Positions 3,110 through 63,490 are shown, counted from the whole stretch's first letter. The stretch: 63,760 nt of DNA, filler included, from Octopus bimaculoides (GCF_001194135.2; 5 parts of 5 records of this genome joined end to end with filler, not necessarily neighbours in it), one strand, 5' to 3'. Translations and numbers: made by a program. The notes: generated by a model not told the origin, from the sequence alone.

Positions 3110-3179
3110 GCCATGATAAAACTCTGAGTTTCGGTTGTTGGGGTGGAAACCCATGCTGCCATCTCTTCAGTTATCTGGC
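3110..3179 (-). ncRNA. Type I hammerhead ribozyme motif (inverted copy, weak stem II)
   Basis: Minus strand reads gcca-gataa CTGAAGA gatggcagc...caacc GAAA ctcagag T T ttatc-a-tggc. Stem I has 9 WC pairs with one bulge, the core is intact, and stem II is poorly paired. Confidence 0.55.
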
Positions 3180-3205
3180 CATTGAAAGATGCTATGAAAA
3201 TGATG

Positions 3206-3275
3206 GCCAGATAGCTGAAGAGATGGCGGCGTGGGTTTCCGCCCTGACATCCGAAACTCGGAGTTTTATCATGGC
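3206..3275 (+). ncRNA. Type I hammerhead ribozyme motif
   Basis: Stem I gcca-gatag (3206-3214) / ttatc-a-tggc (3266-3275). CTGAAGA at 3215-3221. Stem II gatg..catc plus ggcgg/ccgcc, with a bulged C at its base. GAAA at 3253-3256. Near-palindromic stem III aactc-g-gagtt. Predicted GUU cleavage after 3265. Confidence 0.7.
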
Positions 3276-3648
3276 TACCGAATAATTGTCACATATTATT
3301 TACAGATGAATTCCTCTATTTGCATAATACTGAGGTCTCTTTCTTTCTTTTGCTGTTTTACCTTTTCTATCAATATATATATATATATATATATTGGTGG
3401 AGGAAAGCCTTCTTTTTTCTGTTGAGGGCTTATGTGCTCCCTTATTAGACTGTTTTCCTTAGTCATTGCACGGTGATTGCCATAAGCTTTAAGCTTGTAT
3501 AGAAATACCATTATTATTATTTAAACACACACACACACACATATATATAAAGGATAAGACCATTATTTAGAATAATGATCATATGAAGTGGCCGACATGG
3601 AAAATTCCATATAAGTAATAATTATTATAGGTATACAATAATATAAAT

Positions 3649-3905
3649 ATAATTATAATTAAGGGTACCAAAGTGGCACCATCATGCCAGAAATAGCAGT
3701 CAGAACAGACTCTAGAACCACATCATGTATTCATATAGCAAAGGTGATGAGATAAATGAACAAAGAAATTAGCAATTTTTGCTAATTTCTTTGTTCGTTA
3801 ATCCTATCACCAGTGCTATATGAATACATTATGTGGTTCTATAGTAAGTTTTGACTGCTATTTCTGGCATGGTGGTGCCACTTCGGTACCCTGAATTATA
3901 ATTAT
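3649..3905. repeat. About 257-bp near-perfect palindrome (foldback/MITE-like)
   Basis: Outer 72-bp arms 3649-3720 / 3834-3905. The interior is also self-complementary (atgtattcatatagca/tgctatatgaatacat; gaacaaagaaattagcaa-ttt-ttgctaatttctttgttc). Confidence 0.85.
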
Positions 3906-4550
3906 GGAGTGGTTGTGTGGTAAGTAGCTTGCTTACCAACCACATGGTTCCAGGTTCAGTCGTACTGCATGGCACCTTGGGCAAGTGTCTTCTATAGCCT
4001 TGAGCTGACCAATGCCTTATGAGTAGATTTGGTAGACAAAAATCATAAAAAAAAGCTGTCATATTTGTGTGTGTGTGTGTGTGTGTGTGTGTAGGCATGT
4101 ATGTATGTTTGTGACTGTTTGTCTCTCATCACTGCTTGACAACTGGTGTTGGTTTGCTTATGTCCCCATAACTTGGCAGCTTGGCGAAAGAGCCTGATAG
4201 AATAAGAACCAGGGTTAAAAAAGAAAAATATAAATACTGGGGGTCAATTTGTTGAACTAGGAAATTCTTCAAGGTGGTGCTCAAGCATGGCCACAGTCTA
4301 ATTAATAAAATGAGTAAAAGATAAATAATAAAAAAAGATATGTGTGTCTGTGTTTTTCTGTCCTGAACTGCTTGACAACCAGTGTTGGTGTGTTTACATC
4401 CCCAAAACCTGGTGGTTCAGCAAAAGAGATCGATAGAATAAATATCAGGCATTCAGAAAAATAAATACTGTGGTTGATTCATTGAACTAAAATTCTTCAA
4501 GGCTGTGCCCCAGTATGGCCACAGTCTAATGACTGAAACAAGTAAAAAAG
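3905..4550 (+). mobile_element. SINE family A full copy followed by a second 3' module
   Basis: Head ggagtggttgtgtggtaagtagcttgcttaccaaccacatggttccaggttcag. The 3' module occurs at about 4120-4320 and again at about 4350-4550. Confidence 0.8.
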
Positions 4551-4559
4551 AAAAAAAAA

Positions 4560-5075
4560 GGTGTGTTAACTTGAATGTGTGTTTATGTGAGTGTGTGTTA
4601 AAGAGTGTGTTTGGGTGTATATGTGTTTGTGTGCTTGAGTGTATGTGTTAGAAAGTAATGGATAAAGGATTACATACATACAAACACATAACAGATGTAT
4701 GGTAGTGTGTTTGTGTATGAAAATGTGTGTAATAAGGTAATGGGGAAAGGAATGTATGTGTGTGTACATACATATACATATATGTGTATAAATGTGTATT
4801 CAGATATATGTTTGTATATATATATATATATATATATATATATATATATATATATATATATATATATTTATATGTATGTGTGTGTGTGTGTGTATGTATA
4901 TATATATATCTTTGTATTTACACATGTACATATATATTTGTGTGTGTATATATACATATATATATGTGTGTGAGTCTATGTATATGTGTGTGTATGTATA
5001 CATATATGTGTGTATATGTGTGTGTATGTATACATATATGTGTGTTTGTATGTATATATATGTGTGTGTGTATAG
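4560..5075. repeat. Compound (TA)n/(TG)n microsatellite field
   Basis: Direct reading; it generates the spurious YI/CV/TH ORFs. Confidence 0.95.
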
Positions 5076-5703
5076 GATAGTCGTTGCTGTATGTTTACAC
5101 AAAGTGCGTGTGTGAGTAGCAGCAAAAGACAGGGTAGTGGGAGGGGCAAAGAGAGACCCGATACCTTCCATATGGACACAATATGTATCACAACATAAGA
5201 GATGGGCTATAGGATAATTCTATTCCTTAAAGTTGTTTACAGAAGATGATTTTTCAGTCACAGATGGCTAACAGAGTGAGAAGTGATGGATGTGGGGGAG
5301 GAGGTGGCTAGAGAAATAAGATGGGCTGGAAGCTGAGCAGGGAGAGCAGAGTGGATTACTGGAGATTTGACCACCATGGAATTGGAGCTGGTTTCAATGT
5401 GGAAAGTTTACAAAAATCACGTAAAAATACTTGAAGAATGCTTATGAAAATACTTGTCCCCACCACCATCACTACTATCACCGTCATCGTCGTCTTACCT
5501 TAAAGAACTTCAACAGACAAATGGAAGGATGCATAAAAATTCCAGAAATCATCATCATTATCATCTTCCCTATTCTTCTTTTTCTTCTTCTTGCAATGCC
5601 ATGCATATGGTATTGTTTTGTTTACGTGATCTTCTTATATTTAATTTGCAGCAGCAATGGGATAAGGAGTGTGGGTCACAATGCTTCTCCCATCTAGCGG
5701 TGA

Positions 5704-60899: not shown

Positions 60900-61045
60900 G
60901 CAACATGCTTCTTTCAGTTTCCATCTAGCAAATCCACTTAAAAGGCTTTGATCAGTGCAAGGGTACAGTAGAGGTACCATGCAGTGGAACTGAACCTGGA
61001 ACCATGTGGCTTGGAAGCAAGCTTCTTACCACACAGCCATGTCTG
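60900..61045 (-). mobile_element. SINE family A 5' portion
   Basis: cttctttcagtttccatctagcaaatccact..gtggaactgaacctggaaccatgtggcttggaagcaagcttcttaccacacagcc. Confidence 0.75.
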
Positions 61046-61279
61046 TGCCTATATAAAACCACAAAACAGTTTTCCCAATGCTCTAACAACGCTGCCAGTT
61101 TGCCACCTTCCTTTTTTTATTTTTTTGTAGATTTTAACCCAAATAAAATTTTTTCAATCATTCATTATTCCTCTGAGGNNNNNNNNNNNNNNNNNNNNNN
61201 NNNNNNNNNNNNNNNNNNNNNNTTAATTAATTAANNNNNNNNNNNNNNNNNNNNNNNNNNNNNNNNNNNNNNNNNNNNC

Positions 61280-61437
61280 ACTACACTCTCTGAGTGGTTG
61301 GCGTTAGGAAGGGCATCCAGCTGTAGAAACTCTGCCAAATCAGACTGGAGCCTGGTGTTGCCATCCGGTTTCACCAGTCCTCAGTCAAATCGTCCAACCC
61401 ATGCTAGCATGGAAAGCGGACGTTAAACGATGATGAT
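61280..61437 (+). mobile_element. Family D 3' end emerging from a gap
   Basis: Near-identical to 22075-22230. Confidence 0.85.
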
Positions 61438-61443
61438 GGTAGG

Positions 61444-61668
61444 GGACAAACACAGACACACACACACACACACACACACACACTGATACAAATAGATAGA
61501 TAGATAGATATACAACAGGCTTCTTTCAGTTTCTGTCTACCAAATCCACTCACAAGGCTTCAGCCAACCAGTGGCTATAGTAGAAACACTTGCCCAAGGT
61601 TTTATGCAGTGGGACTGAACCTAGAACCATGTGGTTAGGAAGTAAATTTCTTTCCACACAGCTGCACT
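61444..61668 (-). mobile_element. SINE family A
   Basis: Reverse complement of the head and body modules. Confidence 0.75.
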
Positions 61669-62261
61669 CACACACACATGCATCTAAGTGATATGTCATT
61701 AGTTTGATTAACGTTTACCAGTTTAATTAATTGCTTGATGGATTATAAATTATTTTTCTTTCTCTTACTCTTCACCTCTCCAAAATGGAGAATAAATATT
61801 TTTTTAAAGATCACAGATAACAAGGATAAATAGCCCAATTAACGTTTATCACACTAATTAATCCACTTTCTTCTTAGTCATTTAAATTTCCTATCGTCAT
61901 TCATTCTTTTTTTATATTTATTTCTTTCTCTGTTTGTTTTATTTTCTTTTATTATTTTTTTTTTATGCTGATGAAATGTTTTAGAATGTTCTAGAACATG
62001 TTTTCAATTTGATTTTCATCTAATTTAAACTGAAAACTGAAATATATCTGTGGCTTAATACTTCTGTCTGTTTACACTATTTCCCAGCATAAAACCAATG
62101 TAGTATATAGTGTAAACATGTAGTGGAAACATGTAGTAGAAACATTCAAACATCGTTGCTATCTGTCTAAACCCTGCTGCATTTCACATGGAATTTTCTC
62201 TCCTCCAAAGTCTTCTGGGTGCATTAATTGACCTGCCTTGTTTTTGACTCACTCTCTCTCT

Positions 62262-62400
62262 CTCTTTTACTCGTTTCAGTCATTTGGTTGTGGCCATGCT
62301 GGAGCACCGCCTTTAGTCAAACAAATCGACCCCAGGACTTATTCTTGGGAAGCCTAGTACTTATTCTATCGGTCTCTTTTGCCGAACTGCTAAAGTTACA
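62262..62400 (-). mobile_element. SINE family A 3' module
   Basis: gccatgctggagcaccgcctttagtc..ccccaggacttattc..agcctagtacttattctatcggtctcttttgccgaac. Confidence 0.8.
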
Positions 62401-63251
62401 TTAAATGAAAATTTCATAAATGCTGTCTGTATTGATTCGAATGGAAAATGTCGCTGAAGAAGGACTTCAGTTTGAACAATTTTCATGACGTTTCATATAT
62501 TTAGATGCTATTATTAAATTCCTACAGTTGTTAAACATAAATAAATGGTTTTGACATACTGTCAGGTATATATATATATATATNNNNNNNNNNNNNNNNN
62601 NNNNNNNNNNNNNNNNNNNNNNNNNNNTTAATTAATTAANNNNNNNNNNNNNNNNNNNNNNNNNNNNNNNNNNNNNNNNNNNNAACAACAACAAGTAGTA
62701 ACGTTATATAAAGGTTGAGGTTTCAATTTCTATCAGGAATTGCAGAAGAATTTTGTTAAACAATTCATTTGATATTTTTGTAGGAGATAAGTTTAAAAGA
62801 AATGTGAAAAGCTAACTTACGCCCTACGAAGTCTTGAATCCCGACCAAGGGGTTTAGAACGCCTTTTGTTACTGTCTCCATACACCTCAACCCACTAGGC
62901 TGCTTGGGGGACCCAGTAAGCTCTATATCAATTTAATAAAATTAAGTTTGTTATAAATCAAGATTGCTATCACAAGGGTTAGGGGCACAACTTAAAGGTG
63001 GGTGTTTCAATCCCTAGCACAAACAATTATTTTAATGTATTTTGTCCTACGTATGCTTTTGGCCGACTTCAACCACAGCAAACATGCTTTATATTTCTGA
63101 CCACTTATCTACACTTTCACATCAATGATGTTGGATGAAAAATGTGACTGCTTAAATCATTAATAATTACTGATCTGATGTTCTATAAGATTTATATATT
63201 GTTTCACGCTGGCCACTTGATAAAATCATTGAAGTATTTTATCCTGAATAC

Positions 63252-63490
63252 TATATTAATCAATGAAATTCCAACTTCCGCGATCATCAGTTTTATGTGG
63301 TGATAACCGTGTTCCACAATTGACAACTGTTATCAATTGTGGAACACATCAGTCACTCCATATGCCTGACGATCGTGTAACGCATGAAAGTACTAGTTTA
63401 ATTTCAATATTTTAAAATTGTAAAATTGTAAAAATTGCAAATAATAAAACGTGTAAATCAGGCTAAGTTGGAATTTCATTAATTAATATA
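63252..63490. repeat. Nested inverted-repeat element with a central 15-bp hairpin and a degenerate hammerhead motif
   Basis: Outer arms 63252-63277 / 63465-63490. gatcatcag (63282-90) vs ctgacgatc (63366-74). Hairpin gtgttccacaattga-9nt-tcaattgtggaacac at 63309-63347. CTGACGA..GAAA GTAC TA at 63366-63395. Confidence 0.6.

Follow-up and report, generated by a model that had tools for sequence, protein, structure and literature searches.

Hammerhead ribozyme motifs, a Penelope-like element remnant and one copy, with a tRNA-like head, of an abundant hammerhead family in Octopus bimaculoides DNA

Background

Why should a single stretch of octopus DNA carry eight hammerhead ribozyme motifs, and how are these related to the remnant of a Penelope-like element (PLE) that lies among them? 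The stretch, called here the window, is 63,760 nucleotides long, filler included, and is composed of five parts of the Octopus bimaculoides genome (GCF_001194135.2) joined end to end with filler. It is AT-rich, microsatellite-rich, animal-type DNA with N gaps. We label the motifs A+ (at 3206), A- (3110), B (12387), C (15504), G (37673), D (45106), E (59322) and F (63366); E is also used for the element in which the motif at 59322 lies. The original prediction interpreted the motifs as hammerheads of the PLE type, dispersed by several non-autonomous families and potentially able to cut a host pre-mRNA.

The combination of dispersed hammerheads and a PLE remnant is known biology. We conclude, with a probability of about 0.72 for the statement as a whole, that most of the motifs are decayed PLE 3' ends and that E represents an abundant hammerhead family that has a tRNA-like promoter head in the window copy and is likely copied by a PLE. 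The coordinates of all principal features are collected in Table 1.

Table 1. Principal features of the window
Feature	Position	Strand	Description
Element E, 272 bp	59146..59417	+	Inverted tail-end piece, A/B boxes, (AAT)n, hammerhead body, 3' end without family tail
12-bp inverted piece of family tail end	Left end of E		Matches the reverse complement of the tail end exactly over 59144-59157
RNA polymerase III (Pol III) A box of E	59157-59167	+	33 nt from B box
Pol III B box of E	59201-59211	+	33 nt from A box
(AAT)n of E	59228-59271	+	Between B box and body
Direct repeats of E	59135-59145, 59418-59427		7 bp exact, 10-11 bp imperfect; target duplication
Minimal hammerhead of E	59322..59362	+	Three bases, with the cleavage triplet, missing in window copy
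Putative PLE insertion stub A	3078..3372		Inverted 5'-truncated arm 3078-3182, 20-bp spacer, direct arm 3203-3307
Hammerhead A+, type I, complete core	3206..3275	+	Stem III 4 bp, 1-nt loop as in Hydra-clade PLEs
Inverted copy A-	3110..3179	-	Stem II decayed; host-sense; inside 97-bp hairpin
Hammerhead B, type I, complete	12387..12438	+	Stem II 10/11 bp; stem I 4 bp
Putative PLE insertion stub F	63246..63522		Head-to-head inverted pair; 26-bp tail on right only, then (TA)n
Hammerhead F, decayed	63360-63395	+	Stems I and II broken
Hammerhead 3' half G	37673..37697	-	Palindromic stem III; 5' half missing beside (TA)n run
Decayed minimal hammerhead-like motif C	15504..15548	+	C.A mismatch at 15.2/16.2; stem II weak; possibly a chance motif
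Decayed hammerhead D	45106..45222	+	89-nt stem II hairpin, 2-bp stem I
Broken PLE open reading frame, classed as Hydra clade	38075..43275	+	DKT, reverse transcriptase (RT), thumb, Asn-rich insert, CxCX5C linker, GIY-YIG; 5'-truncated
c-Myb-family exon, R1/R2 junction, 153 nt	29664..29816	-	Canonical AG/GT splice sites; best solved-structure match c-Myb

Identification of the hammerhead motifs

The eight motif strings are all present where they had been reported. A strict type I descriptor matches twice in the window, in A+ (3215+) and B (12391+). The mean in 300 local dinucleotide shuffles is 0.02 and none of them reaches two matches, as expected if the motifs exceed chance. Three relaxed descriptors were composed after the candidates were known. 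Dropping the 15.2-16.2 pair adds C at 15508+ (three matches compared with a mean of 0.06; 0/300 shuffles), omitting the cleavage triplet yields B, C and E, the last at 59326+ (three compared with 0.08; 0/300), and allowing a long stem II gives D at 45111+ (one compared with 0.02; 6/300 shuffles reach it). The initial loose descriptor was not significant (two matches compared with 0.41; 11/150 shuffles reach this count). The bare CTGANGA count (50, compared with 27 in shuffles) was discarded as evidence because GAT/CTG repeats and copies of short interspersed elements (SINEs) inflate it.

The Rfam check proposed for the motifs gave no hammerhead among the 150 matches listed of 161 in the window, and none around E. 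As an independent comparison set we retrieved 78 Hydra-type PLE loci from metagenomes. A downstream hammerhead is present in 28 of the 44 loci with at least 300 bases beyond the open reading frame (ORF), and the closest hammerheads lie 56-524 nt 3' of the ORF. A covariance model trained on 40 unrelated hammerheads from these loci produced 23 window matches. The first four are A- (3111-3178, minus strand; E-value 0.0024), A+ (3207-3274, plus strand; 0.07), F (63358+; 0.59, with the alignment wrong at its 3' end) and B (12383+; 0.91), a ranking that bears out the prediction of PLE-type type I hammerheads. C (15500+; 2.8) is eighth, and D, E and G are not among the 23. Some of the metagenome loci carry two different hammerheads each (L044 at 620 and 1737; L055 at 136 and 311), which is consistent with a PLE inserting beside another family.

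CUGANGA, GAAA, NUH and stems I to III occur together in A+ and B in the window and, in sequencing reads, in the family of E. Each of A-, C, D, E, F and G, as it stands in the window, falls short of the full type I set. The motif set is real and above chance, but mostly decayed or partial.

It is possible, though we doubt it, that C and D arose by chance and that only the other motifs are real. C has a poor stem II (z -0.3) in addition to its high E-value, and D has only two base pairs in stem I, is equalled in some shuffles and is missed by the covariance model. On the other hand, C has exact minimal spacing and a 4-bp Watson-Crick stem I, while the long stem II of D scores better (z -1.8) and its stem III differs by a single base from that of metagenome locus L036. 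D lies about 230 bp ahead of a TA-rich repeat.

Probable PLE insertion stubs

From their Hydra-type hammerhead architecture and their position at microsatellites, A, B, F and G are likely to be hammerhead-bearing 3' ends of PLEs, deposited as 5'-truncated insertions in (TA)n and now decaying. In the usual PLE insertion, a 5'-truncated copy lies in inverted orientation and one end carries a tail of 30-40 bp; the targets of Hydra elements are (TA)n (PMC8557442). Dispersed single hammerheads and opposite-strand pairs have been reported as truncated PLEs (PMC4209133).

Stub A lies between (TA)n runs (approximately 3065-3079 and 3373-3394) and has a 65-bp tail on its right arm only. The original prediction considered the stems and flanks of the motifs to be mutually unrelated. 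This does not apply to A- and A+, which form the two halves of a single inverted pair and share 96 of 105 bases (91%). Seven of the nine differences lie at CpG, and ADAR editing is rejected as their source on that ground. The predicted cut of A+ is after 3265 (GUU), and stem III of A is the same as in Hydra-2_Amil, Penelope-16_HM, Penelope-3_HM and several metagenome loci. The predicted cut of B is after 12434 (GUA), and a CA/TA microsatellite occurs about 50 bp upstream. In stub F, the left arm has a deletion and retains only a 5' core at 63290(-); F has T.T at 10.1/11.1, which is common in Hydra elements.

The hairpin forms of A and F require no new family, since an inverted truncated copy with a one-sided tail is the published structure of a PLE insertion; they match the known footprint of 5'-truncated PLEs.

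A sequence of about 60 bp is found to the left of both hairpins (2998-3075 and 63183-63241), and an inverted copy at 3541-3603 closes the A region. It may be the end of a different element, one with a TA tract that serves as PLE target.

The PLE remnant

The RT/GIY-YIG remnant that had been proposed is real. Up to 46 of 48 query proteins match 38075-43062, in collinear order. The ORF is split by a decayed piggyBac-like element (approximately 38380-40790; DDE_Tnp_1_7, E-value 4e-8) and by a SINE (41144-41541). A second decayed piggyBac-like element is located at about 30980-31700. The remnant is 5'-truncated, and its sequence stops short of the region of the N-terminal RWK motif.

The change from DKG to DKT is in frame at about 38200. 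A CxCX5C linker (about 42841) precedes the C-terminal GIY-YIG, for which the Pfam match is weak (E-value 0.075). CCHH is absent, with a single Cys between the GIY- and YIG-like strands. Full-length relatives have DKT in 40 of 43 cases and CxCX5C in 37 of 43. By DKT, CxCX5C and the missing CCHH, the remnant is classed as a Hydra-clade PLE. Used as a protein query, its endonuclease piece retrieves 53 relatives; protein searches with two short RT pieces gave no matches. The Asn-rich inserts resemble those of Argonauta proteins P0026 and P0070, and two relatives are from Argonauta hians.

Structure and abundance of element E

The A/B-box pattern matches twice in the window and never in 100 shuffles, and ARAGORN found no tRNA. 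The inverted tail piece at the left, together with the flanking direct repeats, places the tRNA-like head inside the inserted unit. The unit itself sits within the 3' end of another SINE and includes a duplicated 9-bp unit near its own 3' end. A second tRNA-headed SINE with A and B boxes (27604 to about 27280, minus strand) has no hammerhead core. Three octopus tRNA retroposons were reportedly described by Ohshima and Okada in 1994.

Words of 59140-59425 occur in DNA runs of four organisms (20 runs from 10 studies); no RNA run holding such words is listed on record. Reads were aligned to 59266-59425 (160 bp, a target from which the head is excluded) at 80% likeness for 4 of the 24 listed runs. 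The contigs aligned number 18,129, 19,723 and 15,952 in DNA runs of three organisms. These contig counts are not equal to copy numbers, and the plain reading is a family of many thousands of copies. About 6% of one RNA run provides 6,755 reads, and the family is thus transcribed. In each of the four runs, the body is preceded by (AAT)n.

The reads also restore the hammerhead. Three bases are inserted behind 59357-59358 in 1,099 RNA reads (770, 175 and 154), and a further 1,223 reads are clipped there. With these bases, the family has GAAA, a palindromic 15.2-16.2 without a loop, GUU and a 4-bp stem I. It has an extra base between 9 and 10.1 ahead of a 5-bp stem II, and G10.1-C11.1. In sequence, this is the minimal PLE type of Cervera and de la Pena (2014) and not the Hydra type. 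In the rows listed, N7 is where the core varies in DNA, and the remaining DNA variants fall mostly in CpG or in the loop. Scans with the E motif pattern gave no match in metagenome, genome and viral contigs, nor was there a plasmid match.

The family continues for about 30 nt beyond the right end of the window copy (1,225 RNA reads, agreement 0.8). In addition, 99-239 DNA contigs per row exit into mixed flanks before the tail, which gives two classes of 3' end. The family does not terminate in a simple repeat.

In the RNA run (X24), A>G and T>C make up 40 of 66 variable places, compared with 6/29, 4/23 and 5/19 in the DNA runs. This strong excess would fit adenosine-to-inosine (A-to-I) editing of both orientations, including core position U4 from the antisense strand.

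How element E could move

E combines traits of two kinds of element. The A and B boxes near its 5' end, its short, non-coding nature, its high copy number and the target duplication of one copy are those of a tRNA SINE. The absence of the tail at the right, the inverted tail end at the left and, in reads, the two classes of 3' end and the opposite-strand joints are those of a non-autonomous PLE. We consider it probable that E is mobilised by a PLE.

A published system provides a model. In vitro, the protein of a lizard PLE cuts nicks into AT-rich DNA on both strands and uses two RT start sites, which bound the tail; cutting by its hammerhead is protein-dependent but not required for insertion, and RNA-seq showed no ends at the cut (PMC11167929). 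By this model, Pol III would transcribe E from its head, and the PLE protein would nick both strands of AT-rich DNA and start reverse transcription at two sites. A start inside the 3' end would yield the long tail-less copy that continues through the head. A start at the tail end would yield the 12-bp inverted piece, and a short target duplication would be left. Cutting by the minimal hammerhead would require a dimer or the help of protein, and copying could proceed without it.

Two other routes must be weighed. E could be an ordinary tRNA SINE mobilised by a long interspersed element (LINE), with a captured PLE 3' end as passenger. The A and B boxes, the 7-11-bp target duplication and the duplication of a 9-bp unit close to the 3' end would suit this, as would a window rich in LINE remnants and other SINEs. 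However, the family goes on for some 30 nt past the 9-bp unit and does not end in a simple repeat. Moreover, the left end of E is an inverted sequence from 3' of its own right end, a product that priming at the 3' end of a single RNA should not yield. We therefore regard a LINE partner as unlikely. Somewhat less probable again is a miniature DNA transposon of the Tc1/mariner type with fixed 12-bp inverted ends and the tRNA-like head and hammerhead as cargo. The two family ends do match exactly in inverted orientation, with TA outside, but the window copy lacks the right end and nevertheless has a longer direct repeat, and many DNA contigs exit the family before the tail.

Several observations weigh against mobilisation by a PLE or, more generally, against our interpretation of the window. 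The left end of E reads TA then CAGT, which we take to be like a Tc1 terminus. The junction of head and body is seen in the window copy alone. Opposite-strand joints, read as head-to-head inversions, occur in 141 and 66 reads of the RNA run only, with none in DNA among the rows listed; they could come from one locus or be a library artefact. The 3' end of E found no match in an autonomous PLE when the window was searched, and the window remnant is probably not the partner of E, since the E hammerhead is not of the Hydra type (it is missed by the covariance model). RNA-seq ends had been expected at predicted cut sites, and there is no pile-up at that of E in one fragmented library, a weak test. 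As to the other motifs, D is 1,836 bp beyond the PLE ORF compared with the 56-524 nt of Hydra-type relatives, and copy number was assessed for family E alone. Finally, intron status in the window is deduced from a single Myb exon (see below).

A broader proposition is evenly balanced: that octopods contain a tRNA-headed SINE with many thousands of transcribed and heavily A-to-I-edited copies, whose partner is a PLE rather than a LINE and in whose masters selection maintains a minimal hammerhead. The classification of SINEs follows the LINE that partners them. If E is indeed a Pol III-headed element moved by a PLE, it would add a partner class. E would then also offer a 270-nt RNA and thousands of natural insertions as material for open PLE questions. 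Those it could address are which RNA is bound by the enzyme, the origin of the optional tail and inverted ends, and the conservation of a hammerhead that barely cuts.

The host gene

A Pfam scan covering 150 of 206 non-repetitive open frames identified one Myb repeat, on the minus strand, and no further Myb exons were recognised elsewhere in the window (63 kb). Both flanks of the exon are probably very long introns. The minus strand is therefore the host sense strand, and six of the seven full hammerhead cores are antisense to the exon. The sense core is A-; the remaining host-sense remnants (G and the left arm of F) are half motifs. A- is transcribed after its own complement, and in a folding computation forcing its ribozyme fold costs approximately 81 kcal/mol relative to the 97-bp hairpin. 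With six of seven cores antisense and the sense core trapped in a hairpin, cutting of the host Myb pre-mRNA by window hammerheads, as had been suggested for sense copies, appears unlikely. The sample is too small for the antisense bias to be called selection.

The original prediction in its strongest form would have each motif represent a separate active non-autonomous family with sense copies cutting the host pre-mRNA. The excess of motifs over chance and the intact A+ and B are in keeping with this, and retrozymes have been reported as non-autonomous PLE derivatives (PMC7229834). But there are no tandem arrays overlapping any hammerhead motif in the window, the hairpins have the known inverted PLE structure, decay has occurred at CpG, and the orientation and folding of the cores are as described above; we regard this form as very improbable. 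What survives of the proposed non-autonomous families is the SINE-like one, as the high-copy hammerhead family at 59146-59417. The hairpin forms have the structure of ordinary PLE insertions, and a retrozyme-like form would require the tandem array that is missing.

Part of the intron upstream of the Myb exon (75 bp) is duplicated, without the exon, at 26750-26824 (97%).

Other features of the window

A Tc1/mariner transposase remnant (HTH_Tnp_Tc3_2, DDE_3) is located at 50275-51026 (+). There is a 42-bp minisatellite of 11.3 copies, open in several frames, at 5704-6179, and a long inverted repeat without a hammerhead core at 3649-3905 (127-bp arms, 3-bp spacer, 89%). The region 47600-48350 (-) is GC-richer, partly open and perhaps a decayed mobile element; the frame 47699-48025 and the surrounding stretch gave no Pfam match and no usable Atlas match. 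An identical 100-bp gap pattern (44 N, 12 bases, 44 N) occurs four times (21770-21869, 46177-46276, 61179-61278 and 62584-62683) and is apparently an assembly or masking artefact.

Comparison with known hammerhead carriers

In the full-text literature searched, we found no description of a tRNA-headed SINE mobilised by a PLE or of the E family (Repbase/Dfam and subscription papers are outside this coverage). For giant squid, 235 Rfam hammerhead loci are in print. Octopus bimaculoides itself has a previously published Hydra PLE that bears a hammerhead, Hydra-1_Obim (Craig et al. 2021, PMC8557442). The window ORF is a different family, broken and with its candidate hammerhead 1.8 kb downstream, and the hammerhead of Hydra-1_Obim matches none in the window. 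The general organisation of Hydra-clade PLEs given in the same article is nevertheless that of the window: DKT, CxCX5C, no CCHH, a C-terminal GIY-YIG and (TA)n targets, together with a type I hammerhead with a 3-4-bp stem III and tiny loop, and inverted truncated copies whose tail is on one side only.

The closest hammerheads to that of E are the minimal PLE hammerheads of Cervera and de la Pena (2014, PMC4209133). The Lottia examples share its extra base between 9 and 10.1, G10.1-C11.1, the loopless palindromic 15.2-16.2 and GUU. Unlike E, they have neither a tRNA-like head nor a SINE-like carrier in the part of that article available, and octopus is not in the supplement files examined.

Non-LTR retrozymes (PMC7229834; bioRxiv 10.64898/2026.07.22.740005) resemble E as short, non-coding, hammerhead-bearing elements proposed to use PLE enzymes. 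Unlike the window motifs, they are defined as tandem repeats giving circular RNAs. The available main text of the bioRxiv article mentions neither tRNA, octopus nor cephalopod.

The nearest parallel in overall design is provided by SM-alpha and Sj-alpha of Schistosoma (PMC6765202, PMC4918200, PMC8490949). Like E, these are short non-coding retroposons in which a Pol III/tRNA-like promoter is followed by a type I hammerhead. SM-alpha, as described there, is tandem, and its canonical hammerhead frees monomers. E, by contrast, is a dispersed monomer from a different phylum, with a minimal hammerhead, a PLE-like optional tail and an inverted end.

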